A stretch of 38,533 nucleotides of DNA from a virus (IMGVR_UViG_2531839666_000019); one strand, 5' to 3'; positions 1 to 38,533 are shown, numbered from the stretch's first letter. The notes: generated by a model not told the origin, from the sequence alone. Program-made: numbers and translations.

Positions 1-405
1 TCATTGGTTTACTCCCACGTTAATTGCCGCCATTGCGCTTTGAGCAATATCCATGTCTTGTTCAACGCTACCGCCGCTGATGCCAAGCCCGCCAAGCAAT
101 TTTCCGTCACGCCAGAGGGGGAAGCCGCCACCAAAAGTGACGACTTTGCCTTGCATATGGCTTTCGAGCCCGTAAAGCGGCGCGCCGGGTTGCACGGTAT
201 CAGCAAGTTTGTGGGTTGCCGTTTTCATCGCCACGGCGGTCCAGGCTTTTTTCGGTGCCAGTTCACTGCTGACCAACAGGGCATCAGGCATCCGCCAGGT
301 AACACTTTCTGTTCCGTTGGCATCAACAATGCTGATGACAACGGGATGATGCGCCGCGCGATAAATGTACCAATTTCCGTGAGATAAATTACATCGCTGC
401 GGCAT
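1..405 (-). CDS. GlcG/DUF336-family (heme-binding-like) protein; flanking host gene or terminal cargo
   Basis: 134-aa ORF with motif FGGGFPLWRDGKLLGGLGISGGSVEQDMDIAQSA typical of GlcG/DUF336; stop codon is at bases 1-3 and ATG at 405. Confidence 0.55.
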   Translation of the reverse strand: MPQRCNLSHGNWYIYRAAHHPVVISIVDANGTESVTWRMPDALLVSSELAPKKAWTAVAMKTATHKLADTVQPGAPLYGLESHMQGKVVTFGGGFPLWRDGKLLGGLGISGGSVEQDMDIAQSAMAAINVGVNQ

Positions 406-424
406 TTCAATATCTGAAAAAGAA

Positions 425-997
425 TTACAACTTAGCTTGAGTTTGGAGTTCCTCTACAGGGTGATAACGATAAATCGTCGATATACCGATATCGTAAATA
501 ATTGCCAACTGTTTCCTGCTATAGCCATTTTTGATCAGCCTTGCTATTTGTTCATGTTGCTCTTTTGTCAGTTTCGGACGGCGTCCGCCAATACGCCCCT
601 GTGCACGTGCTGCCTCAAGTCCGGCCAGTGTTCGTTCAACTATTAATTCGCGCTCCATTTCCGCTAAAGCCCCCATGACGTGAAAAAAGAAACGTCCCAT
701 GGGTGTTGACGTATCAATGCTGTCTGTAAGACTACGGAAATTAACCCCTTTTCCCCGCAGTTCCTCAATAAGAGTGATAAGGTGTTTCATGCTTCTGCCC
801 AGCCTATCCAGCTTCCAGACAACGAGCGTATCTCCTTCTGATAACGTTCTGAGCAGCTTTTTCAATCCCGGTCGGGCTGACTTTGTTCCGCTGATTTTAT
901 CCTCAAAAATCAGTTCACATCCTGCGCAGTTCAGTGCGTTTCGTTGTAAATCTGTATTCTGGTCATTTGTTGACACACGAATGTAGCCAATTTGCAT
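425..997 (-). CDS. serine recombinase, DNA invertase of the Gin/Pin/Hin/Cin family
   Basis: Protein begins MQIGYIRVSTNDQNTDLQRNAL (catalytic Ser in the YIRVST motif), has a resolvase core and C-terminal HTH, and is very close in pattern to phage Mu Gin; start trimmed from ORF-track 1192 to the ATG at 997. Confidence 0.9.
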   Translation of the reverse strand: MQIGYIRVSTNDQNTDLQRNALNCAGCELIFEDKISGTKSARPGLKKLLRTLSEGDTLVVWKLDRLGRSMKHLITLIEELRGKGVNFRSLTDSIDTSTPMGRFFFHVMGALAEMERELIVERTLAGLEAARAQGRIGGRRPKLTKEQHEQIARLIKNGYSRKQLAIIYDIGISTIYRYHPVEELQTQAKL

Positions 998-1051
998 GAA
1001 AAATATCCTCTTTGTTTTGTTAAAAATACATAGCTGGTATAGGTGGGAGTT

Positions 1052-1079
1052 AAGACGAAAACGTTGGTTTGGGGGAAGG
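1052..1079 (+). other. gix/hix-like crossover site A (variable left half, TT core at 1064-1065, conserved right half GGTTTGGGGGAAGG)
   Basis: Sequence GACGAAAACG-TT-GGTTTGGGGGAAGG matches the AAACC-NN-GGTTT architecture of Gin/Hin sites; the same right half recurs at sites B, C and, inverted, D. Confidence 0.7.
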
Positions 1080-1530
1080 CTCTGCACTACCTGTTGGTGT
1101 GCCTGTTCCGTGGCCGTCAGCCACACCGCCAGCAGGGTGGCTGAAATGTAACGGCGCAGCATTTTCTTCTGAAATGTACCCCAGGCTGGCAAAGGCTTAT
1201 CCGACCAATAAATTACCGGATTTACGGGGCGAATTTATCCGTGGCTGGGATGACGGACGAGGTATTGATGCAGGACGAGAGATACTTTCATTTCAGGAAG
1301 GCACTATCGTCTCCGGTTTTGATGATAATGATACTGGGGATATCAGTTCACTCAGCTCAACACAATACGGATTTGGTGACACTTTAACCTCTAATCAATG
1401 GGGGGCCATAAATGGCAAAAAGTGGATATTTGATGCATCCAGTAAAGGTGCCCAAAAATATGACTGGTGGGCTTATGTATCAGCTCGTCCGCGTAATATT
1501 GCATTTAATTACATCGTAAGAGCGGCATAG
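1066..1530 (+). CDS. silent alternative tail-fibre C-terminal cassette A (no ATG start; expressed only after inversion)
   Basis: Begins GEGSALPVGVPVPWPSATPPAGWLKCNGAAF, the same sequence that follows site D in the expressed tail fibre; ends with conserved RPRNIAFNYIVRAA; ORF-track start is TTG inside the gix site. Confidence 0.75.
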   Translation, partial: GLGEGSALPVGVPVPWPSATPPAGWLKCNGAAFSSEMYPRLAKAYPTNKLPDLRGEFIRGWDDGRGIDAGREILSFQEGTIVSGFDDNDTGDISSLSSTQYGFGDTLTSNQWGAINGKKWIFDASSKGAQKYDWWAYVSARPRNIAFNYIVRAA

Positions 1531-1551
1531 AAACGTTGGTTTGGGGGAAGG
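1524..1551 (+). other. gix/hix-like crossover site B
   Basis: ATAGAAACG-TT-GGTTTGGGGGAAGG, core at 1536-1537, immediately after the stop codon of cassette A. Confidence 0.7.
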
Positions 1552-1969
1552 CTCTGCACTGCCCGTTGGTGTGCCTGTTCCGTGGCCCTCAGCCACACCG
1601 CCAACAGGCTGGCTGAAATGTAACGGTGCAGTATTTTCTGCTGGGAAGTACCCCAAACTGGCACAGGCTTACCCCACCAATAAATTACCGGATTTACGGG
1701 GCGAATTTATTCGTGGCTGGGATGATGGACGTGGAGTGGACAATGGGCGAGCATTATTAAGCAGGCAGGAGGCTACAAATTTTTCTTATTACGGAGGTAA
1801 TTTCGATATTGGGTCTGGTCATTCAATCAATAACTATGACCAAATCGTTGACAACCAACCTGGATTCTCCCGTTTTTCATTTGCAGGTCCTTCGCGAGGC
1901 GATGGGGTTAATTTTGTGACCATTCGTCCTCGTAATATTGCGTTTAATTACATCGTAAGGGCAGCATGA
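1538..1969 (+). CDS. silent alternative tail-fibre C-terminal cassette B
   Basis: Same conserved N-terminal block and C-terminal RPRNIAFNYIVRAA with a different central region; starts in gix site B. Confidence 0.75.
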   Translation, partial: GLGEGSALPVGVPVPWPSATPPTGWLKCNGAVFSAGKYPKLAQAYPTNKLPDLRGEFIRGWDDGRGVDNGRALLSRQEATNFSYYGGNFDIGSGHSINNYDQIVDNQPGFSRFSFAGPSRGDGVNFVTIRPRNIAFNYIVRAA

Positions 1970-1990
1970 AAACGTTGGTTTGGGGGAAGG
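1963..1990 (+). other. gix/hix-like crossover site C
   Basis: CATGAAAACG-TT-GGTTTGGGGGAAGG, core at 1975-1976, immediately after the stop codon of cassette B. Confidence 0.7.
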
Positions 1991-2483
1991 CTCTGCACTA
2001 CCTGTTGGTGTGCCTGTTCCGTGGCCGTCAGCCACACCGCCAGCAGGGTGGCTGAAATGTAACGGCGCAGCATTTTCTTCTGAAATGTACCCCTGGCTGG
2101 CAAAGGCTTATCCGACCAATAAATTACCGGATTTACGGGGCGAATTTATCCGTGGCTGGGATGACGGACGGGGAATTGATTCAGGGCGTTTCTTGCTTAA
2201 TGCACAACCACATTCGGTTATGGATCATACTCACTATATGGAGTTATGGACCGGTGAAGGGCTTGCTGCAAACAGCACCCGTGCAGGAACAAACCCTGGT
2301 ATACTGGCTACATACGGTGATGGCGGGATTGTTAAAACAGATGAGTCAGGTGTAAAAGTTCCATCTTCACTACGTGCTATTGGCACTCGTGGTGTTTATA
2401 GATTAGGTGCCAACGGAGGGAATACAGGAACGGAAAACCGCCCCCGTAATATTGCGTTTAACTATATTGTAAGGGCTACTTAA
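1977..2483 (+). CDS. silent alternative tail-fibre C-terminal cassette C
   Basis: Same conserved block (about 125 bp identical to the expressed copy) and C-terminal motif; stop overlaps the tfa start (TAATG at 2481-2485). Confidence 0.75.
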   Translation, partial: GLGEGSALPVGVPVPWPSATPPAGWLKCNGAAFSSEMYPWLAKAYPTNKLPDLRGEFIRGWDDGRGIDSGRFLLNAQPHSVMDHTHYMELWTGEGLAANSTRAGTNPGILATYGDGGIVKTDESGVKVPSSLRAIGTRGVYRLGANGGNTGTENRPRNIAFNYIVRAT

Positions 2484-3100
2484 TGAATAATGCTGCTGCA
2501 GTACTTGATCAGAATGGTATCGCTATAACTGCAGGCGATATTACCGTTTATAACTACGATGCTGAAAACCGTGAATATCTCTCTGCCACTGTTGAATATC
2601 TCGCTTATGGTGTTGGAATTCCGGCTCACTCATGCATTGACGCGCCACCAGAAAAACGCCCCGGCTTCGCTGTCTGTCGTGATACCGACCAGAACATCTG
2701 GAAATATGTTCCAGACCACAGAGGCGAAACGGTTTACAGCACAGAGAATGGTAACGCTGTGCAAATCACACAGCCGGGAGATTACCCTTCAGATACGACG
2801 GTGAAACAGCCAGCTACCATCTATGATGTCTGGGATGGTGAGACCTGGGTGACAGATACGAGACGACAGCACGCAGCAGAACTGGAAGCTGCCGGAGCGC
2901 ATCGTCAGCAACTTGAGGAACAGGCAATGGCATCTGTTGAGCTTATTAATCTCAAACTACGAGCCGGACGCCGATTGACGCCCCAGGAGACGGAAAAACT
3001 AAACGCCGTGCTTGATTTCATAGATGCGCTTAATGCGACTGACATCAGCACTGCACCGGATATCAACTGGCCGGAAATGCCTCTGGCAGCAGCCAGTTGA
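2483..3100 (+). CDS. tail fibre assembly protein (Tfa/U-like chaperone)
   Basis: 205-aa protein with the typical Tfa N-terminal region; lies directly downstream of cassette C and converges on the expressed tail fibre. Confidence 0.75.
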   Translation: MNNAAAVLDQNGIAITAGDITVYNYDAENREYLSATVEYLAYGVGIPAHSCIDAPPEKRPGFAVCRDTDQNIWKYVPDHRGETVYSTENGNAVQITQPGDYPSDTTVKQPATIYDVWDGETWVTDTRRQHAAELEAAGAHRQQLEEQAMASVELINLKLRAGRRLTPQETEKLNAVLDFIDALNATDISTAPDINWPEMPLAAAS

Positions 3101-3106
3101 GTATAA

Positions 3107-4075
3107 TTAAGCCGCCCTCACGATATAGTTAAATGCAATATTGCGGGGGCGAGTTTCACTACCACCAGTGTTACCAATACTTCCTCGTGAATGAAGCGTT
3201 GGTGATGGAATCAAACTCCCTCCTGTATTTGCAGCATCAAGTCCCCGGCCTTGTGAATATGTTTTTTTGAAAATTGTGGCCAACTCCCATTCATCCTTTG
3301 TGTCATACCCATCGTTAGCTACAACAATATGGCGGTGTTTTTCCAGCATCCCAGTTTGAAAGCTCAATAAAGCACGTCCTGCATCAATCCCTCGCCCGTC
3401 ATCCCAGCCACGGATAAATTCGCCCCGTAAATCCGGTAATTTATTGGTCGGATAAGCCTTTGCCAGCCAGGGGTACATTTCAGAAGAAAATGCTGCGCCG
3501 TTACATTTCAGCCACCCTGCTGGTGGTGTTGCTGAGGGCCACGGAACGGGCACACCAACGGGCAGCGCAGAGCCTTCCCCCAAACCAAGGTTTTTGACAA
3601 ACAGCGCAGGATCAGGAATATCTGCGCCGTTCTGGTCTTTAGCCAGCTTTTCCGCCAGCTTGTTCAGTACCGTAGTCGCAAAGTTTGGATCATTACCGAG
3701 AGCGTCAGCCAGCTCTTTAAGCGTATCCAGTGTCTCAGGGGCGCTGCCTGCAAGCGCCGCAAGTGCTTTGGCCACAAACTCCGTCGTCGCCAGCTTTTTG
3801 CTGTTATCGCCATTTGCAGGTGTAGGTGCTGTTGGTGTGCCGGTGAATGCCGGACTGGCTTTCGGTGCATACTGGGCATGCGGGTCTGCTGCCGCGATGT
3901 GTTTCGCAAGGTCAGCCCCGCCTTTTTCAACCTGTTGCTTCAGGTACAGCGTGCGGCTGGCCAGTTGTTTACCCTGACGGTTAGAAATTCCGTCAGGCCC
4001 GCCCAGAACGGGGTCAGAGACCTCAATCTGGTAGATGCCGTCTTCCCACTGTGGGGTTTCAGGTAGATTTGCCAT
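3107..4075 (-). CDS. tail fibre protein (constant N-terminal part plus currently expressed variable C-terminal cassette D, 3107-3586)
   Basis: 322-aa protein; N-terminal tail-fibre region followed after site D by the GEGSALPVGV block and the RPRNIAFNYIVRAA terminus. Confidence 0.85.
   Translation of the reverse strand: MANLPETPQWEDGIYQIEVSDPVLGGPDGISNRQGKQLASRTLYLKQQVEKGGADLAKHIAAADPHAQYAPKASPAFTGTPTAPTPANGDNSKKLATTEFVAKALAALAGSAPETLDTLKELADALGNDPNFATTVLNKLAEKLAKDQNGADIPDPALFVKNLGLGEGSALPVGVPVPWPSATPPAGWLKCNGAAFSSEMYPWLAKAYPTNKLPDLRGEFIRGWDDGRGIDAGRALLSFQTGMLEKHRHIVVANDGYDTKDEWELATIFKKTYSQGRGLDAANTGGSLIPSPTLHSRGSIGNTGGSETRPRNIAFNYIVRAA
3573..3600 (-). other. gix/hix-like crossover site D, inverted relative to A-C, inside the expressed tail-fibre gene
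   Basis: Plus strand reads CCTTCCCCCAAACC-AA-GGTTTTTGACAA, a near-palindrome resembling hixL; core at 3587-3588; encodes FVKNLGLGEG of the tail fibre. Confidence 0.75.
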
Positions 4076-4077: not shown

Positions 4078-4656
4078 TTAACTGCTCCCGTGGTTGTAAC
4101 TACCGTCATAACGGGTAGTACTGTTGTATCGAATGGCGACAGACTGATATTCCAGGCTTGCCAGATGGCAGCGAGCCGGAGCAAAGGCAGCGAGCGTCTG
4201 ACGTAACAGCGCTGCCTGATCATTAGTGATGGGCTGTTGAAGGATGACCCGATAGACTGCCCAGGCTTGTGCATCGCCATGGACGAAAAGTCCGTTGTAA
4301 CTGTGTTTACCGTCGTAGCCGATCTGCCCCGTACCTTCTATCAGCTCTACTTCGCCAAAGCCAAAACGGCGGATAATTTCCCGGATTGACCACGGCGTTC
4401 CTTTATAGCGGTGTAGCTCGATAGCGGATTTGATAAGCATGCGGCGTACATCGTCCGATTCCGCCAGTTCCCAGCCATCGCCGAACAACGAGAACTGCTC
4501 GCCCAGCCATGGCAGCGCGGAACTGTCGACGATATCGACGAGACAGACCATCAGTACGCTCAGGTCGATGTTATCCAGCCGTTCGGCCAGTCTTCCCAGC
4601 GTTTTGAGACTGATATCACCCTCAAGCGGTGGCGGTAGTCGTAGCGCCTCAGCCAT
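4078..4656 (-). CDS. tail/baseplate protein, Mu gp48-like (DUF2313/YmfQ-like)
   Basis: 192-aa ORF in the conserved position between baseplate J-like and tail fibre genes. Confidence 0.6.
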   Translation of the reverse strand: MAEALRLPPPLEGDISLKTLGRLAERLDNIDLSVLMVCLVDIVDSSALPWLGEQFSLFGDGWELAESDDVRRMLIKSAIELHRYKGTPWSIREIIRRFGFGEVELIEGTGQIGYDGKHSYNGLFVHGDAQAWAVYRVILQQPITNDQAALLRQTLAAFAPARCHLASLEYQSVAIRYNSTTRYDGSYNHGSS

Positions 4657-5752
4657 CGGACACCCCTGTCACGTTAAGAGTGATTGCCGTACAGTTTGCC
4701 CATTCGTTTTCTGCAACCACCCGCAGTGCCGGTGTCACCAGTTCAACCTGGTACACCCCGGAAACGGACAATGCACTGATAATCTGGCTGGGGACAATAT
4801 CGCGTCCCAGCGTGGCGGCACGTGATGCCACCCAGTTCTGTATGGCGCTGTTAGCGTTGTCCTTTACCGACATTGCATCCTGATCACGATAGATCGTAAT
4901 CCTGGCTTCAATGGTGTAATCCACCTGAACAGGTGTTTTAGCCCGCACGGTATCAGTGAGTGGTCTGACTTTTTCGTCAGAACAGAAACTCTCTACCAGA
5001 GTGAGGATACTGCTGTCTGGCAGACCAGTGCTGAGCAGTGGATACAGCTCGACAGTACCGGGAACGGGAGAAAGAACAGCGACGTCGACAATACTGGGAT
5101 GCGCCCCCATGGCATGAAAACGGTATGCACCACGGCTTCCGGCATTGGTGAATGACTCCGGGGCCAGCCTGATACGCTCCCGGAGTCGGTCATTGTCTTC
5201 CTGCTCTGAACCGCCAGTGCTGGCCGTCAGATTGGTCACCAGCAGGTCAACGTTATCAATCTCATCAAGCAGCTGACTGACCTGAGCCGGTTGCCAGCCG
5301 TTGCCAGAGGTACCCGGCTCAGTACAGGTGGCAGGGGCATTGACCAGTTGCAAACCGGCCTTCAGCACTACATCTGTATCGGTGGCAAAAATCACGCTGT
5401 CGGAAGCGCTGACGCGGGTGCCTGCCGGGATCAGCACATCAATGGCCAGTGCCTCATCCACAGAGAACTGAAGTGTGGTGGTGGCAGGCTGCGCGGGAAG
5501 GCGGTATACACCAACCAGTTCTCCGAGGTAATCAATCATCGGCTCCCGGGAAAAGGCGACCAGATTCAGCTTCGCCGCCTCCTGTACCGCCACCCTGACC
5601 AGCATTTCGCGATAGGCCCACAGATCTATTAGCAGACGTTCTGCCTGTGCCGGGTACAACGTTTTGCCGGTATCCGCTTCATATTTCGCAATCATTTCTG
5701 CCGTGATTTTATCGGCATCGAGTTCAATAAAATCGGGTTCTGTCAGCGCCAT
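4649..5752 (-). CDS. baseplate J-like protein (Mu gp47-like)
   Basis: 367-aa ORF, position and size typical of baseplate J family; overlaps neighbours by a few bases in operon fashion. Confidence 0.75.
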   Translation of the reverse strand: MALTEPDFIELDADKITAEMIAKYEADTGKTLYPAQAERLLIDLWAYREMLVRVAVQEAAKLNLVAFSREPMIDYLGELVGVYRLPAQPATTTLQFSVDEALAIDVLIPAGTRVSASDSVIFATDTDVVLKAGLQLVNAPATCTEPGTSGNGWQPAQVSQLLDEIDNVDLLVTNLTASTGGSEQEDNDRLRERIRLAPESFTNAGSRGAYRFHAMGAHPSIVDVAVLSPVPGTVELYPLLSTGLPDSSILTLVESFCSDEKVRPLTDTVRAKTPVQVDYTIEARITIYRDQDAMSVKDNANSAIQNWVASRAATLGRDIVPSQIISALSVSGVYQVELVTPALRVVAENEWANCTAITLNVTGVSDG

Positions 5753-6090
5753 AGCAGTTCCTGAGTACGGGGTTGTCCGTCTGAGCCTTTCCAGCTCACC
5801 CGGAGCGTAAGATGTTCGCCGTCGACGGCGGGTTTAACCGACATAAGCTGGCAGCGGGGTTCCCAGCGCCTGATGGCATCGACGGATTCGCGAACCACAT
5901 GCGGAATGGCCCGGTCGACAGGCCAGTCGATATAAAGGTGCAGATTGCTGCCGAACTCTGGGCGATGCGGGTCGCTGCCGCGGGGAGTCCGCAGGATGAT
6001 CTGGATGGACTGCTGGATATCATCCAGCCCCCGGACGATTTCGCCGGGAGCCTGCAGAGCCGGTTGCCAGAATACTGAGGTCGTTTTCAT
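5743..6090 (-). CDS. baseplate protein, GPW/gp25-like (Mu gp46-like)
   Basis: 115-aa ORF with typical size and position; N-terminus MKTTSVFWQPALQAPGEIVRGLDDIQQSI. Confidence 0.7.
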   Translation of the reverse strand: MKTTSVFWQPALQAPGEIVRGLDDIQQSIQIILRTPRGSDPHRPEFGSNLHLYIDWPVDRAIPHVVRESVDAIRRWEPRCQLMSVKPAVDGEHLTLRVSWKGSDGQPRTQELLWR

Positions 6091-6161
6091 GGGGGCAGTA
6101 TTGCCCCAGTAAGAAAAGAACGATATTAAAGGGATTTAAAAAGGAGTTATTGATACGTTTG

Positions 6162-7037
6162 TTAAATTACGAAAACCTTGACGATAAGTTCTCCGTCTTT
6201 AGAAACTCTCTTCCCCTCAAGATCAGATTTCAGCCCCTCAGAATTAGTAATAAGCTGGTTCGGATCGTAGATGACACACCAGAGATTTTTGCAATCAGAG
6301 TGCCGACGATAATGCTCTATATCGATAATAAGTTCATCGCCGATTTTCTTTGCATGAGAACGATCACGAACAATTTTGGTTTCCAGTACTAATTTATGCG
6401 CAGGTAACAAAAAATCCATTCGAGTACTTGAACCAGCGTAACTTGGAGTAAACTCTTCTGGGCGGATGTCCTGAACCCATGGTCTGAGCAATGCATGGAG
6501 AAGGTCTTGCACGTCATATTCATTGCTAAAAGATAATGACTGGCTTCCTTTTCGCCTATGAGTAAGTGGATGCATTGCTCGCTGTAAGCCTTTGACCAGC
6601 CTTTCCAGTAAGTTCTCAACTTTTTCTGGCATTACTGGCTGTTGATAAGTAATTATGGTCTCTGGGTAATCCATATTGTGTGACGGGATGTGGCCTTCAG
6701 GCAACACTCGACCAAAACGATAATATCTAAGTCCATTCTCTTGTAACACAGCTTCAATTCTGTCTCGTTTTTCCTTCCATTCTGCATATTCGGGAGTACC
6801 TTCTTTTGGAGGTAAATCCATAAACTCCTCAATTACTCCGCCCAGAACTGCCAGACTATCTGTATCTGGATCTTGCCCTGCAAGAAATAACCAGTCTTTC
6901 CATTTTGTACTATGAGATCCTGCCGGAGGGTTTCCTGGTGCTCCCGAAGTAAGAAATAACGTATCTAAAGCTGCATGAGAGCCTGAGTTAGCAATGACAT
7001 CGCCAACTACTTTACATAAGGATCTTGATAACCGCAT
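6162..7037 (-). CDS. inserted accessory gene in the baseplate block; candidate PD-(D/E)xK-fold nuclease-like protein
   Basis: 291-aa ORF, visibly AT-richer than flanking genes, flanked by 71-bp and 81-bp spacers; C-terminal region contains D-x11-E-x-K (MDFLLPAHKLVLETKIV). Confidence 0.5.
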   Translation of the reverse strand: MRLSRSLCKVVGDVIANSGSHAALDTLFLTSGAPGNPPAGSHSTKWKDWLFLAGQDPDTDSLAVLGGVIEEFMDLPPKEGTPEYAEWKEKRDRIEAVLQENGLRYYRFGRVLPEGHIPSHNMDYPETIITYQQPVMPEKVENLLERLVKGLQRAMHPLTHRRKGSQSLSFSNEYDVQDLLHALLRPWVQDIRPEEFTPSYAGSSTRMDFLLPAHKLVLETKIVRDRSHAKKIGDELIIDIEHYRRHSDCKNLWCVIYDPNQLITNSEGLKSDLEGKRVSKDGELIVKVFVI

Positions 7038-8782: not shown

Positions 8783-8985
8783 GGGGCAATATCCTCTTCT
8801 GTACGGGCATCTTCAGCCTCAATAACCGGGATCAGTAACAACAACCCGGAGGGCAGCACTGGCGTAATGGCCACGTGCGGATTGGCTGCAATAATCCGGG
8901 GATAGCCCAGCGGGTCACCGTAGTACTGCCATGCCAGCGAATCCCAGCGCTCTCCGTCACGGGTAATATGTTCAAGAAACATCAC
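8770..8985 (-). CDS. small tail protein (tail protein X-like)
   Basis: 71-aa ORF translationally coupled to neighbours. Confidence 0.45.
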   Translation of the reverse strand: MMFLEHITRDGERWDSLAWQYYGDPLGYPRIIAANPHVAITPVLPSGLLLLIPVIEAEDARTEEDIAPWLR

Positions 8986-12932: not shown

Positions 12933-12939
12933 TGTGATG

Positions 12940-30443: not shown

Positions 30444-30493
30444 AATCTATCACATATAAAACAAACATCATTGCATCAACAAAGGAGACAACA

Positions 30494-31968: not shown

Positions 31969-33738
31969 ATGAATGCTGCCCTGACTGAACGACTGGTTTA
32001 TGTCGCCCGCGCGGCACGTGACGCGGGGCATGGTAAACGCGGTGCAATATACGACGCTGCCTGTGCTGAACTTGGCATGTCCCGCGCCACTCTGCTGCGC
32101 AGGCTGAAGGAGGTATCTGTGACTGATAAACGCAAAAAACGCGCCGATGCCGGGCGCAGCGCCCTGACCCGCGACGAAGCCGCGCTGATATCTGCCACAC
32201 TGCGTGAGGCCACCCGCAAGAACGGTAAGCGTCTCTATTCCATCGCAGATGCAGTGGAAACCCTGCGGGCTAACGGCTTTATCTCCGCAGGCAGAACAGA
32301 TGAAACCACCGGTGAGTTTTTCCCGTTGTCCGAAGATGCCATCAGTCGTGCCTTGCGTAACTATGGCCTGCACCCGGAACAACTGGATGCCCCTGCGCCG
32401 CATACCGAAGTGGCCAGTCTGCATCCCAATCACGTCTGGCAGATTGATGCCTCGCTCTGCACGCTTTACTACCTGAGCAATGGACACAAAGGGCTGCAGG
32501 TGATGGACAGCGCGAAGTTCTACAAGAATAAACCCGCTAACCTTGCCCGTATCGCCAGTGACCGCGTGTGGAGTTACGAGATTACCGACCATGCCAGCGG
32601 CTGGATTTACGTTGAGTATGTGACGGGTGCGGAATCCGGTGAGAACCTGTGTTCTGTGCTTATCAACGCCATGCAGGAGCGTGGCGGCGCAGACGTGCTG
32701 CACGGCGTGCCGAAAATACTCTATCTCGACCCCGGCTCGGCAAACACCGCGGGTATGACGAAAAACATGTGCCGCTCACTGGGCATCGACCTGATAGCGC
32801 ACAAGCCGCATAACGCCCGCGCCACCGGACAGGTGGAAAAGGCGCGTGACATTATCGAACGCAAGCTGGAGCCGGGTCTGAAATTCCGGCCGGTTCACAG
32901 TCTGGAAGAACTCAACGCGCTGGCCGCGAAATGGCGTAGCCACTTTAACGCAACAGCTGTTCACAGCCGCCACGGTAAAACCCGCACGGATATCTGGCTG
33001 AAGATTACTGCTGAGCAGCTGAAAAAAGCGCCTTCCGTTGAGGTATGCCGTGAACTGGCTGTGGCGACACCAGAACTCCGCAAAGTCACGCCAAAACTTC
33101 GTGTCTCGTTCCGGGGCACTGAATTTGACGTATCAACGGTACCGGGCGTACTGGTTGGTGAAAAACTGATGATTACCCGTAACCCATGGCGCAGCGATGT
33201 GGCACAGGTGGTTCTGACCGGTGAGGACGGCCACGAGACGTTCTTCCTGGTCGAAGAGGTCAGAAAGAACGAGTTTGGCTTTGCTGAAGGCGCGGCGGTA
33301 TTTGGCGAAAGTTACAAAGCCCTGCCGGAAACACCGGCACAGACGGCGGCAAAAGAAACCGAAGCGCTGGTCACCGGTACAGACAACGCCGCAGATGCAG
33401 CTGCCGCACGCAAGGCGAAGGCGCTGCCGTTCGGCGGGCGGCTTGACCCGTATAAACATATTGATGACGCCACACTTCCGGCCTGTATACCGAAGCGCGG
33501 TCAGGTCTCTGATGTACGCAGACCGCGCACTGAACAACGTCCCATGACTCATGTGGAGGCCGCGAAAGCCCTGCGCGATAAGTTCAGCGCCGACGGCCTT
33601 ACCTGGACGCCGGAACATTACCGCCAGTTAACGGCACAGTACCCGGACGGCGTACCGGAAGCCGCACTGGATGAAGTAATGGCCACGCTGACCACGCCGG
33701 CCCGCAGCAGCGTTATCAGCATTGTTAACGGCAACTGA
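31969..33738 (+). CDS. DDE transposase (Mu A-like, integrase-core family)
   Basis: 589-aa protein with DDE-type residues in HVWQIDAS and YLDPGSAN; followed by an overlapping AAA+ partner gene. Confidence 0.8.
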   Translation: MNAALTERLVYVARAARDAGHGKRGAIYDAACAELGMSRATLLRRLKEVSVTDKRKKRADAGRSALTRDEAALISATLREATRKNGKRLYSIADAVETLRANGFISAGRTDETTGEFFPLSEDAISRALRNYGLHPEQLDAPAPHTEVASLHPNHVWQIDASLCTLYYLSNGHKGLQVMDSAKFYKNKPANLARIASDRVWSYEITDHASGWIYVEYVTGAESGENLCSVLINAMQERGGADVLHGVPKILYLDPGSANTAGMTKNMCRSLGIDLIAHKPHNARATGQVEKARDIIERKLEPGLKFRPVHSLEELNALAAKWRSHFNATAVHSRHGKTRTDIWLKITAEQLKKAPSVEVCRELAVATPELRKVTPKLRVSFRGTEFDVSTVPGVLVGEKLMITRNPWRSDVAQVVLTGEDGHETFFLVEEVRKNEFGFAEGAAVFGESYKALPETPAQTAAKETEALVTGTDNAADAAAARKAKALPFGGRLDPYKHIDDATLPACIPKRGQVSDVRRPRTEQRPMTHVEAAKALRDKFSADGLTWTPEHYRQLTAQYPDGVPEAALDEVMATLTTPARSSVISIVNGN

Positions 33739-34915
33739 GGAGGGAAACATGCTGGTACTGAAGCAGCAACTGAAAGAGGCCCGTATTCCACAGGCGGTGG
33801 TGGCGAGAGCTGTCGATGTTTCTGAGGCCACGCTGGCCCAGATTGTGAATCATAACGCGTGGCCCCGCACCAGCCCCGGAGAAGTGCGCCGGCGTCTTGC
33901 GTCCTGGCTGGAAAGTCAGGGGATTGATACAGCGAAGAGTTTTGATGCTGTACAGGGCGCGGCCACTCCCCGTACAGCGGGTACCACAGATAAAACGAGC
34001 CTCAGTGAGGAAGAGAATATGTTACTCAAAAAACAGGTGTTATTCCCGGCAACCAAAAAAGCGTTTGGTCTTTTCCGTGACCCGTTCGCCGACGAAGCCA
34101 TGCAGGGTTCTGATGATGTGTTCACCACCCCGGACATTCGCTACGTGCGTGAGGCGTTGTACCAGACAGCCCGTCATGGTGGGTTTATGGCCGTCATCGG
34201 TGAGTCCGGTGCGGGTAAATCCACGCTGCGCCGCGACCTGACTGAACGTATCAACCGCGAGAATGCGCCGGTAATTGTTATCGAGCCATACATCATCGCT
34301 ATGGAAGACAACGATGTGAAAGGGAAAACCCTGAAGGCAGCAGCTATTGCCGAAGCCATTATCAGTACCATCGCACCACTGGAAAGCATCAGACGCAGTC
34401 AGGACGCCCGCTTTCGCCAGTTGCATCGCGTCCTGAAAGACAGCAGCCAGGCGGGGTTCAGCCACGTTCTGGTGATTGAGGAGGCCCACAGTCTGCCCAT
34501 TCCGACACTGAAACACCTCAAACGCTTTTTTGAGCTGGAGTCCGGTTTCAAAAAACTGCTGTCCATCGTGCTGATTGGCCAGCCGGAACTGGCGACAAAA
34601 CTGTCTGAACGCAATATGGAAGTCCGTGAAGTCGTTCAGCGCTGTGAGGTGGTCGAACTTCTGCCTCTGGACAATAACCTTGAAGAGTTTCTGACGTTCA
34701 AACTGCAACGGGCAGGTAAACAACTGACGGACATTATGGACGCCAGTGCAGTGGATGCCATACGTGCCCGCCTGAGCAATCCGGGAAGTCATCGTAAAAA
34801 TATGGTCAGCCTGTTGTATCCGCTGGCCGTCAGTAACCTGGTGATAGCCGCCATGAATCTGGCCGCTGAAATCGGGGTTCCACAGGTCAACGCTGACGTT
34901 GTCAAAGGGGTTTAA
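33722..34915 (+). CDS. transposition ATPase (Mu B/TniB-like AAA+)
   Basis: Walker A VIGESGAGKST and Walker B HVLVIEEAH; N-terminal HTH. Confidence 0.8.
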   Translation: MLTATEEGNMLVLKQQLKEARIPQAVVARAVDVSEATLAQIVNHNAWPRTSPGEVRRRLASWLESQGIDTAKSFDAVQGAATPRTAGTTDKTSLSEEENMLLKKQVLFPATKKAFGLFRDPFADEAMQGSDDVFTTPDIRYVREALYQTARHGGFMAVIGESGAGKSTLRRDLTERINRENAPVIVIEPYIIAMEDNDVKGKTLKAAAIAEAIISTIAPLESIRRSQDARFRQLHRVLKDSSQAGFSHVLVIEEAHSLPIPTLKHLKRFFELESGFKKLLSIVLIGQPELATKLSERNMEVREVVQRCEVVELLPLDNNLEEFLTFKLQRAGKQLTDIMDASAVDAIRARLSNPGSHRKNMVSLLYPLAVSNLVIAAMNLAAEIGVPQVNADVVKGV

Positions 34916-34917: not shown

Positions 34918-35187
34918 ATGAAATCCACCACAGGTATCAACCAGCAAATCAGCAAAGTGCAGTCAGCCATTATGGCGCTTAAGGCGACGAACACGGATGT
35001 ACAAAGCATCACCATCAGGGGTAACAAACCTGTCATCCGCGTTTCCCGGAGTGCGCATTGCATGCGCATGCTTGAGCAGGGAAAGGCCTGTTATCTGTAT
35101 ACCGGACATGACCACAGGGGATATTTCCGTCAGGGCGTTTTCGAACTGCACGGCTGTCGCGTCGTGTGGCCGGAATCTTTGTGGTAA
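34918..35187 (+). CDS. hypothetical early protein
   Basis: 89-aa ORF, tightly packed after the B-like gene. Confidence 0.4.
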   Translation: MKSTTGINQQISKVQSAIMALKATNTDVQSITIRGNKPVIRVSRSAHCMRMLEQGKACYLYTGHDHRGYFRQGVFELHGCRVVWPESLW

Positions 35188-35214
35188 TCAGCACAACTGG
35201 AGAAATCATAAGAT

Positions 35215-35745
35215 ATGGCAAAAAGTACAAAAGGGGCAAAACGTATCAAGTCCGCAGCGGCACTCTGGGTACCGGGGACACGCGAAGAGGTCATTGAGGG
35301 AATCAGACTGCTCGGTGACGCACAACGTGAACTGGTCAGGGCTGAAACAGAAATGAATGACGCCATTGGCGATATCACCGCACGTTATGCCCCGCTCACC
35401 GAGAGCCTAAAAAAACGCATGGCCGAACTGCAGTCCGGTATTCAGACATGGTGTGAGGCACACCGTGATGAACTGACCGGCAACGGGAAGGTGAAGTTCG
35501 CTAACCTCACCACCGGCGAGGTGCAGTGGCGAAACCGTCCGCCATCAGTCAGTATCCGTGGAGCGGATAATGTTATTGAACTACTGAGACGTCTGGGGCT
35601 TGAGCGCTTTATTCGTGTAAAAGAGGAAATAAATAAAGATGCCATTCTGAATGAAAAAGAGGCCGTGAAAAATATTCCCGGTATTACCATAAAAAGTGAT
35701 ATTGAGGATTTTTCAATAATTCCTTTTGAGCAGGATGTGCAGTAA
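35215..35745 (+). CDS. gam: Gam-like host-nuclease inhibitor protein (Mu Gam family)
   Basis: 176-aa protein with N-terminal coiled coil and overall pattern of the Mu Gam family. Confidence 0.65.
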   Translation: MAKSTKGAKRIKSAAALWVPGTREEVIEGIRLLGDAQRELVRAETEMNDAIGDITARYAPLTESLKKRMAELQSGIQTWCEAHRDELTGNGKVKFANLTTGEVQWRNRPPSVSIRGADNVIELLRRLGLERFIRVKEEINKDAILNEKEAVKNIPGITIKSDIEDFSIIPFEQDVQ

Positions 35746-35842
35746 ACACACCACGTTAATTATTTAATAAAAACATTTTCTTTTTTATTCCGGCGTCAGC
35801 GCCGTGGGCTTCTGCACGCCGGAAACAGAGGAGAATTAAATT

Positions 35843-36037
35843 ATGATATTTAAATGTATTCAGTGCGAGAGGGATATAACAGCCCTGCGTTTTCACAGCG
35901 CCATCGCCGTGATGTCCGGTAAGTACCACGTACCTGCAGTACGTGTCACCCTGGTCTGTCCGTACTGCAGCCAGCATTTTTCGGCGGACGTGCCCGTCAT
36001 GGAATTCTTCCGCCCTGACAGGGAGGACGCGCAATGA
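35843..36037 (+). CDS. small zinc-ribbon protein
   Basis: 64 aa with two CxxC pairs (CIQC ... CPYC). Confidence 0.45.
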   Translation: MIFKCIQCERDITALRFHSAIAVMSGKYHVPAVRVTLVCPYCSQHFSADVPVMEFFRPDREDAQ

Positions 36038-36306
36038 TTACCCCACAGGACGCAGAAAAACGGACCCGCGAAATTGTCGCGGAATATATCCGTGAATGTG
36101 GTTGTAAAACCCCCAACCATATCCGGCTGGTATTAACCAAATTAATCAGCATGGCCGCGCAGGCTATTGTGGCGACCAACGGAAAGGAGGCTGCCCTGCA
36201 GGTACTGGTGAACACACTCACCCACACGGCAGAGCATGAGGTGCCGTACCGGATGGAAACTACTGCAGAAGGCGGCCTGCACATCACCGTCGACCGGAAG
36301 CACTGA
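36034..36306 (+). CDS. hypothetical early protein
   Basis: 90-aa ORF, translationally coupled. Confidence 0.4.
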   Translation: MITPQDAEKRTREIVAEYIRECGCKTPNHIRLVLTKLISMAAQAIVATNGKEAALQVLVNTLTHTAEHEVPYRMETTAEGGLHITVDRKH

Positions 36307-36315
36307 GGGCGCGAC

Positions 36316-36621
36316 ATGACACGAAACACCGAACTCACCCGCACCGCCCTCTACCGTCTGGCTCTGCAGCGTTTCGGGCCGGATGCACAGGCCCTGAAAC
36401 TGACAGAAGAGGCCGCCGAACTGGCGGCCAGTGCCGCCCGCAACCTGAACGGACAGGGCAGCGAAAGTGACCTCGCGGCAGAGCTGGCAGACGTGGAAAT
36501 CATGACAGAGCAGCTGCGCCTTCAGGGGATGGACCGGCTGATTGACTTCCACAAACAGAAAAAACTGGAACGCCTTGCCGCACGGCTGGGTGTCATGTAC
36601 ACCGGAGATACTGAACAATGA
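36316..36621 (+). CDS. hypothetical early protein
   Basis: 101-aa ORF, translationally coupled. Confidence 0.4.
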   Translation: MTRNTELTRTALYRLALQRFGPDAQALKLTEEAAELAASAARNLNGQGSESDLAAELADVEIMTEQLRLQGMDRLIDFHKQKKLERLAARLGVMYTGDTEQ

Positions 36622-37298
36622 CAGACCAGGATAAACACATTGAGAAACTGAAAAAGTTGCTGGCGCTGGCCGCATCCGGCAACCCTCACGAGGCCGCTCT
36701 GGCACTGCGCCGTGCCCGTAAACTGATGGATGTTCACGGCATCACACATTCCGACATCGCCATGAGTGATATTGATGAAACCATCAGTCACTACTGGCCG
36801 ACAGGCAGCCTCCGTCCACCGCGCTACATGCTGGGCCTGATGAACATCATCCGCGAGGCATTTGGTGTTAACTCCATCATTCACCCCGGCACATATCCGG
36901 GTGTGGGGTTCTACGGCAACCGGGAACGGGCTGCACTGGCTGCGTACACCTGGGAAGTGCTGGCCCGCCAGCTGAAAAAGGCGCGTCAGCAATATATCAG
37001 CGCACAGAACAAAAGAATAAAAACTGCCACCCGTACCAGCCGTGGTGACCAGTTTGCTGAAGGCTGGGTGCTGGCCGTTATCAGTGAAATACAGTCCTTC
37101 GCCCTGACCGATGACGAACGTGAACTGATGCAGCAGTGGCTGGAACATAAATACCCGCAAACGCAAACCACCAGGGCGCGTAAAGGAAGAAGCCGCAATG
37201 GCGGCGCCTCGCGCTATGCGGGGTTTCGTGAAGGGCAGAACGTCAGACTGCACCGCCCGGTCAGTGGGCAGGAACAACAGAAACTGGAGGCCAGATGA
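36618..37298 (+). CDS. phage early protein (DUF2786-like N-terminus)
   Basis: N-terminus KHIEKLKKLLALAASGNPHEAALALRRARKLMDVHGI. Confidence 0.5.
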   Translation: MTDQDKHIEKLKKLLALAASGNPHEAALALRRARKLMDVHGITHSDIAMSDIDETISHYWPTGSLRPPRYMLGLMNIIREAFGVNSIIHPGTYPGVGFYGNRERAALAAYTWEVLARQLKKARQQYISAQNKRIKTATRTSRGDQFAEGWVLAVISEIQSFALTDDERELMQQWLEHKYPQTQTTRARKGRSRNGGASRYAGFREGQNVRLHRPVSGQEQQKLEAR

Positions 37299-37525
37299 TT
37301 ACGCTATCAGGTAACAGCCGGAAATTAAAAGCCTGCCGAATATCTGCCAGATACCTTTTTGCCCGCGCCTTTTTTAAGAACGTCAGGCCGGGGATCACAA
37401 TTGGTGTTATTGCCGGACGCGAACAGGTTGAAAAATACATGTCAGGTGCATGGTGGAATAACGACCCTGTCATTGCTGCCCGTAATATTCATATCAGTTG
37501 GGGGGATATTCAGAATGACTGCTGA
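37295..37525 (+). CDS. hypothetical small protein
   Basis: 76-aa ORF overlapping the previous stop. Confidence 0.35.
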   Translation: MITLSGNSRKLKACRISARYLFARAFFKNVRPGITIGVIAGREQVEKYMSGAWWNNDPVIAARNIHISWGDIQNDC

Positions 37526-37719
37526 ATCTGTTGTATGTGCCATGTTCTGGTATTGTTTTGTCGGTTAGTGTACTGCTGAACTGCACCGCCGTTCAGGGTT
37601 TTATTCACGTTACAGTGGTGCCGGCTACTGGATTAGCTGGTCGGTGATGTTCCTGTGCTGGCCTGTGGCGCTTCCTTTATATGTCGATTATATCGGTGGC
37701 GCAGGTAAAAGGAGCAACG

Positions 37720-38172
37720 ATGATGACTAAACAACGTCTTATCCAGCTCATTCATATTGCCCGTAATGAACTGGGTATGGATGAAGACACCTACCGCCAG
37801 ATGTTACAGGGGCTGACCGGTAAAGCCTCAACCAAAGGAATGGATACCACACAACTAAACTGCGTGCTGGAATCCATGAAAAGGAAAGGCTTTCGCGTTA
37901 AGCCTGCCGGAAAAGCCAGCTCCGGTTTACCGCTGGATAACCATCCGCAGTCCAGGAAAATCCGTGCGCTATGGATTGAAATGGCTGCTGCCGGCATTGT
38001 TCGTGACCGTTCAGAAAATGCATTAGCGCGGTGGATCAAGCGGGAAACGGGCATCAGCGCCCTGCGCTGGCTCAATACTGAACAGGCAAGCAGTGTTATT
38101 GAGAAACTGAAGAAGTGGCAGCGCAGAGCTGCGGGAGTAAAACATGAGCGACCTGAATCAGTTTCGAAGTAA
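37720..38172 (+). CDS. gemA: GemA-like regulatory protein (DUF1018 family)
   Basis: MMTKQRLIQLIHIARNELGMDEDTYRQML pattern; start set at the ATG at 37720, preceded by AAAGGAG. Confidence 0.6.
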   Translation: MMTKQRLIQLIHIARNELGMDEDTYRQMLQGLTGKASTKGMDTTQLNCVLESMKRKGFRVKPAGKASSGLPLDNHPQSRKIRALWIEMAAAGIVRDRSENALARWIKRETGISALRWLNTEQASSVIEKLKKWQRRAAGVKHERPESVSK

Positions 38173-38533
38173 AGGGCCGGAACTCCTGGTGGAACTGGCA
38201 CAGCATACCTCTGAGACCGTTCGCGAGATTATTGATATTGAGCCCGCAATTGCCGACCAGATTGGTCAGGCTGTCGCGAACCGAATGATGCAGGTCTGGG
38301 GCGGGCAAAACGTTTATTTCCCAATGGGCATGGTATGGAAGGTCAGTCAGCGCGACCGGGAAATCTTCAGGGAGTTTAACGGACGCAACCACCACGAACT
38401 GGCCCGCAAATTTGGTGTTTCGCTTCAGTGGGTCTACAGCGTGGTTAAGCGGGTAAGAAAAGAAGAACTGGATCGGATGCAGGGCAAGCTATTTGCTGAT
38501 GAACCCGATGCAGATACGGAGAAAAAAGAGTAA
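38144..38533 (+). CDS. mor: Mor/C-family transcription activator
   Basis: 129-aa protein with C-terminal HTH ELARKFGVSLQWVYSVVKR; stop at the last three bases of the window. Confidence 0.7.
   Translation: MSDLNQFRSKGPELLVELAQHTSETVREIIDIEPAIADQIGQAVANRMMQVWGGQNVYFPMGMVWKVSQRDREIFREFNGRNHHELARKFGVSLQWVYSVVKRVRKEELDRMQGKLFADEPDADTEKKE

Follow-up and report, generated by a model that had tools for sequence, protein, structure and literature searches.

A BcepMu-like transposable prophage with a two-armed gene layout in Escherichia coli pduO

Burkholderia phage BcepMu (NC_005882) is said to have been described by Summer et al. in 2004. The BcepMu-like viruses are treated by Lavigne et al. 2009 (PMC2771037), where BcepMu is given two oppositely oriented gene clusters with lysogeny control at their interface, a transposase of the Tn552-IS1604 type (both in section 20) and no fibre inversion system. 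Genes 1-16 of the BcepMu record are on one strand and genes 17-52 on the other. All genes of phage Mu (NC_000929) except the repressor and the silent fibre genes are read in one direction, whereas the element analyzed here is divided into two arms. It was found in IMGVR_UViG_2531839666_000019, a stretch of 38,533 nt (positions 1-38,533) that is referred to as the window.

To obtain the gene layout, the RefSeq annotation of a 99.9% identical copy in E. coli JNEC-KY202 (designated KY202) was transferred to the window ORFs. The rightward arm runs from a small HTH protein to Mor (30494 to 38533), and 16 of its 16 genes are on the + strand. The leftward arm (425 to 30443) contains repressor, lysis, head, tail, fibre and invertase genes, all on the − strand except the invertible fibre cassettes and the fibre-assembly gene; direction changes at 30443/30494. 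A first-pass annotation had assigned early genes to the right and late genes to the left, and this is borne out by the ORFs and the transferred annotation. It had also described the whole late operon as running leftward from the same central region. The direction is right for most genes, but the + strand carries three silent fibre cassettes as well as the fibre-assembly gene, and an immunity/accessory block of ~4 kb (26578-30443), which includes the repressor, parts the switch from the lysis genes.

Using tblastn, the window was found to be colinear with BcepMu gene for gene, in mirror image, from tail fibre to Mor, with 28-77% protein identity (40 of the 59 provisional window ORFs tested). 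Matches to Mu were few, being limited to Gin, a short fibre stretch, Gam, GemA, Mor, TerL, portal, F and G. The resemblance to BcepMu-like transposable phages proposed in the first-pass annotation therefore agrees with colinearity, with transposase and ATPase identity and with the literature (see also PMC2628397). We place at roughly 95% the probability that the window represents one complete-type BcepMu-like transposable myovirus prophage of ~38.35 kb in E. coli pduO, and that two arms are the normal layout for its group. Gene content, strand layout, BcepMu colinearity, exact ends, a 6-bp target duplication and multiple insertion sites are established.

The early arm (+ strand) begins with a 62-aa HTH protein occupying the Cro/Ner position (30494-30682; 45% to BcepMu gp16), a 102-aa winged-HTH regulator (30735-31043; 33% to gp12) and a DUF3102 protein (31054-31965; 38% to gp10). 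These are followed by a DDE (rve) transposase of 589 aa (31969..33738; Pfam, 68.5% to gp09) and an AAA+ transposition ATPase of 388 aa (AAA_22 / ExeA-type, 33749..34915; Pfam, 59% to gp08). The remainder (34918..38533; KY202 annotation, Pfam and tblastn) consists of a small ORF, Gam (35215-35745), six small or unassigned genes, GemA (37723-38172) and, as the last early gene, Mor (38144-38533), the single Mor/C-family activator. Earlier calls of Gam-, GemA- and Mor-like genes were supported by Pfam (6e-41, 6e-41 and 1e-43, respectively), as was that of a short transposase. The accompanying labels “Ner-like”, “A-like” and “B-like” are apt for position and function, but these proteins are not homologues of Mu Ner, A and B. 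No match of Mu A to the transposase or of Mu B to the ATPase was obtained (tblastn, E<1e-3). By Pfam, rve occurs only in the window transposase and BcepMu gp09, while Mu A has DDE_2, HTH_Tnp_Mu_1, HTH_Tnp_Mu_2 and Mu-transpos_C. The transposase thus belongs to the rve / Tn552-IS1604 type, with gp09 rather than Mu A as its homologue, and has an ExeA-type partner, as in BcepMu. The Muvirus set of MuA, MuB, c and Ner domains is missing from the window. In Mu, MuA combines DDE_2 with Mu-specific DNA-binding domains, MuB has a C-terminal domain of its own (Phage-MuB_C), the c repressor shares the Ialpha-type domain with MuA, and Ner is of the HTH_35 type; Mu further has a separate C activator and Mu-type tail genes, all of which the window lacks. 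Nor does the window show the one-direction transcription, bar the repressor, of Muvirus (Mu, D108).

The central switch consists of a leftward XRE-type repressor gene and a rightward candidate early promoter. The repressor (29982..30443, −; 153 aa) is 39% identical to BcepMu gp17, and its HTH_31 and HTH_3 domains (Pfam), compared with HTH_Tnp_Mu_1 in Mu c, confirm the earlier call of an XRE-type rather than Mu-c-type protein. Repressor and small HTH regulator thus stand at the interface of two opposed clusters, as is typical of BcepMu-like phages. A candidate early promoter, TTGACA-17-CATAAT (30418..30446, +), was identified by motif match and agrees with consensus at 11 of 12 positions. Inside its spacer is a perfect palindrome, ATGAGAAC-AATA-GTTCTCAT (30424-30443), that overlaps the repressor start codon; judging from these motifs, it is a candidate operator, and the repressor would bind it within the early promoter. 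Downstream of the repressor and in the same direction is a gene with an intact length of 328 aa (29011..29985, −; phrog_10002, no assigned function), and the pair is conserved in a Serratia prophage. Comparison with KY202 revealed an IS1 (28270-29037) with a 37-bp direct repeat on either side (28233-28269 = 29038-29074; 28233..29074 in all, −), its own genes also being on the − strand. The insertion point is 12 codons short of the stop of the 328-aa gene, which here encodes 316 native residues plus an IS1-encoded tail. Other accessory genes on the − strand encode a DUF2441 protein (26578-27153; Pfam) and a protein of 203 aa (27562-28173) that is a degenerate paralogue of the catalytic core of the transposase. 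GC content at 26-31 kb is 0.43-0.50, versus 0.55-0.60 in the late genes.

Bases 1-346 of the window are host DNA, not phage. They hold the 3′ part of pduO (GlcG/HbpS-like domain, − strand), which is interrupted by the prophage, as established by flank joining and KY202 annotation. The prophage occupies bases 347-38533, and its right end lies ~162 bp past the window edge. The end on the fibre/invertase side (347..400) opens with TGATG and has two candidate transposase-binding sites, the 11-bp repeats GCGCGATAAAT and GTGAGATAAAT, at positions 10 and 33 counted from the terminus. Both the window element and BcepMu carry the motif SNGMGATAWWT at positions 10 and 33 of either end, although one of the four end sites of the window element begins with T; BcepMu thus shares motif and geometry at both its ends. 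The near-identical KY202 copy, also in pduO, has termini TGA...TCA (TGATG...AATCA), giving the 5′-TG...CA-3′ ends with repeated binding motifs of BcepMu-like phages, and is bracketed by a 6-bp target duplication, ACGGGA. The corresponding ACGGGA in the window is the last 6 bp of the host flank (341-346). When both KY202 flanks were joined with a single ACGGGA, intact pduO was obtained, matching many genomes at 100% identity, and this reconstructed empty site is present in 643 genomes (coverage of at least 80%). An identical right end adjoins three host sequences: pduO, the region upstream of ybaV, and yehQ. A short duplication of the target and a variety of insertion sites mark insertion by transposition. 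End repeats and a target duplication, expected of a transposable phage in the first-pass annotation, were thus found, but the duplication (ACGGGA, KY202 copy) is 6 bp rather than 5 bp.

Two other origins for the layout had been suggested alongside the BcepMu-like one. Adjoining fragments of two unrelated prophages, one a remnant with late genes and the other a distinct early module resembling a transposon, would account for the drop in GC in the central block. That block, however, is a variable accessory region, present but different in PhiKM, KP12 and BcepMu. Both arms are colinear with a single genome, BcepMu; the outermost ends form a matched pair around a single 6-bp duplication in pduO; and right end and early arm recur at two more chromosomal sites, in genomes where both arms again occur together. 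We consider such a juxtaposition extremely improbable. A Mu-type prophage with a recently inverted early region, or else an inversion or chimera that arose in assembly over 26.2-30.5 kb, deserves equally little credence. Gam, GemA, Mor, Gin and some head genes do have Mu homologues, and the central IS1 could in principle mediate rearrangements. Against this, the transposase, ATPase, repressor and Ner-position HTH protein have no Mu counterpart, the layout is shared by BcepMu, PhiKM, KP12 and a Serratia contig, and the outer ends match in their transposase-site repeats and are flanked by a target duplication. Independent complete genomes contain copies free of IS1 with 99.9% identity throughout the region, and misassembly there is unlikely because these genomes share it. 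Inversion or chimera is refuted by the empty-site reconstruction and the IS1-free copies, and exact transposon ends, 6-bp duplication, empty site and three right-end sites exclude the two-fragment origin; on these four grounds both alternatives in the first-pass annotation were discarded in favor of a single BcepMu-like prophage.

From the switch leftward, the arm comprises the repressor and a few accessory genes, lysis genes, a Mu-type head, a P2-type tail and a tail fibre in which a Gin-type invertase exchanges the C-terminal part. All features in this paragraph are on the − strand. TerS (DUF3486), two small genes, spanin, endolysin and holin occupy 23318..26212 (KY202 annotation, Pfam and tblastn), with the holin at 25862-26212 (Pfam Holin_2-3) and the SLT endolysin at 25131-25859 (Pfam SLT). 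Next are a terminase large subunit (21727..23321), frameshifted in comparison with KY202, and Mu G-like, Mu F-like and portal genes (18971..21727) with matches to both BcepMu and Mu. Protease/scaffold (17641-18756) and major capsid protein (16673-17626), both assigned from KY202 annotation and tblastn, belong to a block that also includes head-tail connector, sheath, tube and tail chaperone (12507..18756; sheath 77% and tube 68% to BcepMu). The tape-measure gene (9866..12332), also frameshifted relative to KY202, precedes P2-type tail genes V, D, X and U (7119..9866; 40-59% to BcepMu gp48-gp45). A low-GC moron (6162..7037) encodes 291 aa with a C-terminal REase_DpnII-MboI / PD-(D/E)XK domain (Pfam 4e-47) and was absent from BcepMu, PhiKM and KP12 in sequence comparison. 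P2-type baseplate genes I, J and W (4078-4656, 4649-5752 and 5743-6090; 4078..6090 overall) are 55-65% identical to BcepMu gp51, gp50 and gp49. The Mu-type terminase and head, P2-type tail and holin-SLT-Rz/Rz1 cassette characteristic of BcepMu-like phages are therefore all present; the BcepMu record itself names genes after those of P2.

The late genes appear to be served by a shared motif, TAA-N6-TTAAWATC. Four exact copies, all on the late (−) strand, were found in the four intergenic gaps by motif search, the motif having been derived from these sites. These candidate late promoters lie upstream of the holin (TAACGCGCTTTAAAATC, 26263..26279), upstream of protease/scaffold (TAAAGCAGATTAAAATC, 18812..18828), at 12895-12911, and upstream of the gpW-like gene (TAAATCCCTTTAATATC, 6122..6138). 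Allowing one mismatch gave 7 sites versus 0.45 expected, again with a motif derived from the window sites themselves. The motif also occurs at syntenic gaps in KP12 and BcepMu, and BcepMu carries TAAAGCCGATTAAAAGA at the site syntenic to the second copy. The late arm, previously described as a single operon, probably holds four transcription units.

Multiple-inversion fibre systems include Min of plasmid p15B, Cin of P1, Pin of e14 and Gin of Mu. In these, a serine invertase adjoins the fibre gene and gix/hix-type crossover sites lie within the fibre reading frame; more than two sites yield several alternative fibre C-termini. The window module likewise has a serine invertase beside the fibre gene and gix/hix-type sites. 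The invertase (425..997, −; 190 aa) is of the Gin/Cin/Pin type (Pfam Resolvase 9.5e-51 and HTH_7) and is 71.6% identical to Mu Gin. A multi-site inversion module (1058..3594) is made up of three silent cassettes for the fibre C-terminus, namely A (1058-1530, +), B (1531-1969, +) and C (1969-2483, +), together with fibre-assembly gene D (2483-3100, +) and expressed cassette E (3594-3107, −). The tail fibre gene (3107..4075, −; 322 aa) joins a constant part, 48% to the BcepMu gp52 N-terminus, to cassette E. Repeats of 220 bp start at 1058, 1531 and 1969 (+), with an inverted copy at 3375-3594, and a gix/hix-like core, TTGTCAAAAACCTTGGTTTGGGGGAA, is at about 3575-3600. Region 1058-3100 is on the + strand in the window isomer, and KY202 shows a different isomer. 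Compared with the Min, Cin, Pin and Gin systems, this module has four sites, four C-terminal cassettes and one assembly gene on a BcepMu-like backbone.

Several lesions bear on the state of this copy. A G7 run at 22741, compared with G8 in KY202, splits TerL, an intact 531-aa product in both KY202 and PhiKM, into ORFs of 289 and 273 aa. At 10682-10686, two substitutions together with a 1-base insertion split the tape-measure gene, which is intact at 821 aa in KY202, into ORFs of 603 and 282 aa. One small early ORF contains an internal stop. As sequenced, the window copy may be incapable of producing virions. Together with the IS1 within the repressor-side operon, these changes would be expected if the copy, though the same element, were dead (a cryptic prophage) and not inducible as phage, to which we assign even odds. 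The TerL frameshift is within a homopolymer run and the tape-measure one adjoins a run. Either might stem from a sequencing error, given that the remainder of the arm is only a handful of bases away from KY202. Note that the IS1 junction was found in no complete RefSeq E. coli genome.

Similarity to BcepMu extends to the position of Mor at the far end of the early arm. At the nucleotide level it is only about 25% (36% of the prophage aligns to BcepMu, and identical bases make up 24.8% of prophage length), compared with the ∼70% or more intergenomic similarity required within genus Bcepmuvirus. By this sequence measure, the two belong to the same group and not to the same genus. A Mu-type Gam, the Gin-type invertase with its four-cassette fibre module and the REase-domain moron are absent from BcepMu; conversely, the window element lacks acyltransferase gp53, gave no match to the BcepMu gp03-gp05 region (SSB, HU-like and DUF3164), and differs in central accessory genes. 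With Mu it shares a transposable myovirus lifestyle, TG...CA ends, short target duplication, homologous Gam (63%), GemA, Mor, TerL, portal, F and G, and fibre inversion by Gin (72%). The nearest isolates are Escherichia phage PhiKM (PQ738613), filed by GenBank under Bcepmuvirus, and Klebsiella phage KP12 clone KP12_2 (OM835952). They belong to the same lineage as the window element at species-to-genus level, with 86-94% identity across 70-82% of its late arm and across 55-66% of its early and central part, and they share its gene order and orientation; KP12 also has the invertase. Both differ in having a Dam methylase and other central accessory genes in place of the DUF2441, 203-aa and 328-aa set, and both lack IS1. 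In the PhiKM record, the fibre end is joined to the Mor end via a stretch annotated as a host-type gene, which is only suggestive of virion DNA bordered on either side by varying host sequence, as headful packaging from random sites would give. Of 5426 complete E. coli genomes, 640 carry the early arm.

The element entered E. coli pduO by DDE transposition. It would replicate through replicative transposition and fill its heads by headful packaging, in the manner given for BcepMu. Mor, once made, would switch on about four late promoters of the opposite arm, marked by the motif described above. The two-armed layout was already known, because published descriptions give exactly a two-cluster layout for BcepMu, and the element is an ordinary member of the BcepMu-like group as already described.

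The window is a piece of E. coli chromosome. Open reading frames (ORFs) in it were labelled by carrying over the RefSeq annotation of a near-identical prophage in E. coli JNEC-KY202, which shares 99.95-99.99% identity from 3375 to the window end, IS1 excepted. The divergent layout described in the first-pass annotation was confirmed. All 16 genes of the early arm (30494-38533) are on the plus strand, and every gene in 425-30443 is on the minus strand, except the invertible tail-fibre cassettes and the fibre-assembly gene; the genes of IS1, an insertion, are likewise on the minus strand. The start of the repressor gene (30443, minus strand) and that of the first early gene (30494, plus strand) are separated by 50 bp. 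Pfam matches support the named functions, both in the early arm, with a 589-aa transposase (rve), a 388-aa ATPase (AAA_22), Gam (Phage_Mu_Gam, 6e-41), GemA (6e-41) and Mor (1e-43), and in the leftward arm, with a 153-aa repressor (HTH_31/HTH_3), a holin (Holin_2-3), an endolysin (SLT) and an invertase (Resolvase and HTH_7). Base skews agree with this layout, AT skew being positive across the rightward arm and GC skew negative across most of the leftward one. An Rfam scan at gathering thresholds and a tRNA scan found nothing. Note that a small early ORF (37515-37730) carries an internal stop in both the window and JNEC-KY202, and is intact in strain B7A. Lying between the holin and DUF2441 genes, a 107-aa plus-strand ORF (26343-26666) is unlikely to be a gene, as substitutions are distributed 13/12/12 over the codon positions; it has a strong Shine-Dalgarno sequence and its reading frame is still open in Klebsiella phage KP12.

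To compare the element with BcepMu (NC_005882) and Mu (NC_000929), a provisional set of 59 window ORFs was searched against both genomes by tblastn. Colinearity with BcepMu is mirror-image and extends from the fibre N-terminus to Mor, with a syntenic match for 40 of the 59 ORFs. Identities to BcepMu are 77% for the sheath, 70% for the C-terminal part of TerL, 68% for the tube, 68.5% for the transposase (gp09), 59% for the ATPase (gp08), 39% for the repressor (gp17) and 45% for a 62-aa helix-turn-helix (HTH) protein (gp16). In Mu, tblastn matches were limited to Gin (72%), Gam (63%), GemA, Mor, TerL, portal, F and G, plus 25 residues of the fibre. No match in Mu was obtained with the transposase, the ATPase, the repressor or the small HTH protein. 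Pfam domains differ in the same way. Mu A contains DDE_2, HTH_Tnp_Mu_1, HTH_Tnp_Mu_2 and Mu-transpos_C, whereas the window transposase and BcepMu gp09 contain rve only; Mu B contains Phage-MuB_C, whereas the window ATPase contains AAA_22; and Mu c and Ner contain HTH_Tnp_Mu_1 and HTH_35, respectively. The labels “Ner-like”, “A-like” and “B-like” therefore stand for position and role, but the genes are analogues and not homologues of their Mu namesakes. A PDB sequence search returned no informative relative of the transposase or the ATPase (a retroviral integrase fusion at E 0.006 and ABC ATPases at 0.003).

The resemblance to BcepMu-like phages that the first-pass annotation had proposed is thus upheld by colinearity and transposase type, and also by the BcepMu record, in which genes 1-16 are on one strand and 17-52 on the other. 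The published BcepMu description reports the same two-cluster organisation with a lysogeny control region at the interface, a transposase of the Tn552-IS1604 type and a P2-like tail cassette, and presents BcepMu as having no fibre inversion system (PMC2771037).

Both ends of the element were placed. Positions 1-346 are host DNA, the 3′ part of pduO, and the prophage begins at 347 with TGATGCGCCGCGCGATAAATG. The window ends at the Mor stop codon, and the second prophage end is just outside; in JNEC-KY202 it is 162 bp further, finishing ...CAAGTCTAATCA, and the element there is 37,545 bp. Termini of BcepMu-related prophages are 5′-TG...CA-3′ (PMC2628397). In each end, counting from the terminus, positions 10 and 33 carry an 11-bp repeat (core GMGATAWWT), and the motif recurs at these positions in both ends of BcepMu. 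End repeats and a 5-bp target duplication had been anticipated; the repeats were found, but the duplication is 6 bp. ACGGGA is present at both junctions, and joining the flanks with a single copy restores a 500-bp stretch matching the intact pduO of many genomes at 100% identity. A 7-bp reading, AACGGGA, is possible through a shared A.

The first-pass annotation had offered an inversion, or two juxtaposed prophage fragments, as another origin for the divergent arms. In B7A, TW10573 and 503025 the identical right end adjoins AACAAA upstream of ybaV; in 3-72 and 8178 it adjoins ATTAAA inside a SWIM-domain gene beside yehP. Varied host junctions of this kind are the behaviour of a transposable phage. 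A recent inversion or fusion of fragments is ruled out by the same right end in different host DNA, together with the target duplication and the empty site.

The interrupted gene, pduO (1-346 and L003 42098-42765), encodes a two-domain adenosyltransferase of the propanediol-utilisation operon. The prophage presumably inactivates it, and downstream pdu genes in this lineage may be affected. The reconstructed empty site was matched at a coverage of at least 80% in 643 genomes, and only three pdu-carrying complete genomes gave no match at this coverage, which suggests that very few such genomes have the split site.

When the two halves of the window were compared with phage records by megablast, the matches were Escherichia phage PhiKM (PQ738613; 93-94%), classified as Bcepmuvirus in GenBank taxonomy, Klebsiella phage KP12 clone KP12_2 (OM835952; 86-87%) and Phi06_2974 B. 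Every feature of the BcepMu-like group that can be tested from sequence is present: the layout, the transposase type, the termini, a target duplication with multiple insertion sites, Mu-type heads with P2-type tails, and the lysis cassette. Genome-wide nucleotide similarity is 70% to PhiKM, 68% to KP12, about 25% to BcepMu and 3% to Mu. The element belongs to the BcepMu-like group but, at only about 25% similarity, is outside BcepMu's genus under a 70% rule, despite the label carried by PhiKM. Early-arm DNA (34500-38533) was found in 640 of 5426 complete E. coli genomes (about 12%). Homologues in B7A and B171 were already cited in 2008 (PMC2628397), one E. coli prophage with an invertible region of 2610 bp has been described as “most similar to BcepMu” (PMC11610265), and Bcepmuvirus prophages have been reported in ST131 isolates and among phages induced from human gut isolates of Pseudomonadota. 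The first-pass observation holds and its interpretation is supported, but the layout is already known. It carries little weight as a discovery: a divergent layout is a textbook trait separating BcepMu-like phages from Mu, and this E. coli lineage is common and has Bcepmuvirus as its existing label.

Gene content, strand layout and insertion in the manner of a transposon are shown by the sequence; the regulatory model below is read from sequence motifs and from published accounts of Mu and BcepMu. A candidate early promoter, reading rightward and matching the consensus at 11 of 12 positions (TTGACA-17-CATAAT), is located at 30418-30446. Its spacer is filled by a perfect 8+4+8 palindrome, ATGAGAAC-AATA-GTTCTCAT, that overlaps the repressor ATG and would be a natural candidate operator for a dimeric XRE-type repressor. 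Since no Shine-Dalgarno sequence is visible ahead of this ATG, the repressor mRNA may be leaderless. Neither the transposase nor the repressor contains a domain of the Mu Ialpha type in Pfam, and the Mu scheme, in which repressor and transposase compete at an operator/enhancer near the left end, probably has no counterpart here; this would agree with a switch located 8 kb from the nearest end.

Mor closes the 8-kb early arm and, as the genes scanned included no further member of the Mor/C family, it would be the single late activator. The late arm has four intergenic gaps, and one exact copy of the motif TAA-N6-TTAAWATC was found on the minus strand in each, upstream of the holin (26263-26279), protease/scaffold (18812-18828), tail chaperone (12895-12911) and gpW-like (6122-6138) genes. 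Allowing one mismatch, seven sites were counted against 0.45 expected, a count that is not independent because the pattern was derived from the four sites themselves. Two relatives give independent support. All four corresponding gaps of KP12 contain the motif, and in BcepMu the holin (gp21) and protease (gp32) genes are each preceded by TAAAGCCGATTAAAAGA, and gp49 by TAGCCGGCTTTAATATC. We read the four motifs as candidate Mor-dependent late promoters, and the cascade would then have two tiers. Late genes had been described as one operon running leftward; the direction holds, but about four late units are suggested.

Between the switch and the lysis genes is a 4-kb accessory block (a 328-aa gene, a 203-aa gene and a DUF2441 gene), whose transcription would accompany or follow that of the repressor. 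A possible terminator, formed by a stem-loop and a T-rich run behind it, is located at about 27273-27289. The 203-aa protein (27562-28173, minus strand), encoded in the same direction as the repressor, has no Pfam, PHROG or PADLOC match and shows homology to the phage's own transposase over residues 148-347 of the latter (BLASTP 5e-11; hhalign 95.5%). The first Asp of the triad is replaced by Ser, with Asp in none of the 17 aligned family members, and the Glu by Gln (His in two members); the middle Asp is retained and an RDHxSG motif is invariant across the alignment. By these residues, the protein is a catalytically degenerate copy of the transposase core. The 203-aa gene and its 328-aa neighbour are conserved in the corresponding position of a Serratia BcepMu-like prophage, where the repressor is followed by a 327-aa and 206-aa gene pair, and distant family members are found outside prophages near toxin-antitoxin or RhuM genes. 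A wider two-gene module was considered and rejected, as no similarity of the 328-aa gene was found, either to the transposase or to the gene beside a distant 203-aa homologue. We think it improbable that the 203-aa protein inhibits transpososome assembly in lysogens by a dominant-negative effect, and thereby acts as a second layer of immunity. Were this so, it would damp transposition of its own prophage or exclude superinfecting relatives; we know of no such layer in Mu-type phages. PADLOC gave no match for the central accessory genes or the small early genes.

A low-GC moron (6162-7037, minus strand; GC 0.435) encodes a 291-aa protein with a C-terminal REase_DpnII-MboI / PD-(D/E)XK domain. 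Its neighbours are the gpV-like gene on one side and, on the other, the fourth late motif, which belongs to the gpW-like gene; BcepMu, PhiKM and KP12 all lack it. In PADLOC its REase domain matches only the nuclease domain of “Aga_Helical-REase” models.

The fibre region (1058-3594) is a four-site inversion system. Repeats of 220 bp start at 1058, 1531 and 1969 (plus strand), and the fibre gene contains an inverted copy (3375-3594). Every repeat starts with a gix/hix-like core and leads into a distinct C-terminal cassette ending RPRNIAFNYIVRA. Three of these cassettes are silent and one is expressed, and the module has a single assembly gene. The window holds isomer A+ B+ C+ D+ E- and JNEC-KY202 holds B+ E+ D- C- A-, which by our derivation can be reached from the former by successive inversions. 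In the window isomer the sole fibre-assembly gene points away from the fibre gene.

Four differences from JNEC-KY202 were found: IS1, TerL, the tape-measure gene and one base lost from an intergenic T-run. IS1 (28270-29037; matched by megablast at about 28.27-29.04 kb) replaces the last 12 codons of the 328-aa gene, and no complete E. coli genome was found to share this junction. It is bounded (28233-29074) by a perfect direct repeat of 37 bp, TTGTTGGTCAAGTAATAGAGCTCTACATGGGGCGGTC, of which the IS1-free prophage has one copy. IS1 duplications are usually about 9 bp, and 37 bp is atypical. In TerL, loss of one base from a G8 run (22741) leaves ORFs of 289 and 273 aa; in the tape-measure gene, two substitutions and a one-base insertion beside a C-run (10682-10686) leave 603 and 282 aa. 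These frameshifts could be either real pseudogenisation or sequencing errors, the latter because one change is within a homopolymer run and the other beside one. If the sequence is accurate, this copy would be unable to package DNA or build tails.

For annotation, exact ends, an insertion site and a target duplication can be assigned to the window, with the warning that this prophage copy may be defective. The candidate operator palindrome and the four candidate late-promoter motifs should be useful for studying how a single Mor-type activator, encoded at the far end of one arm, controls the opposite arm.
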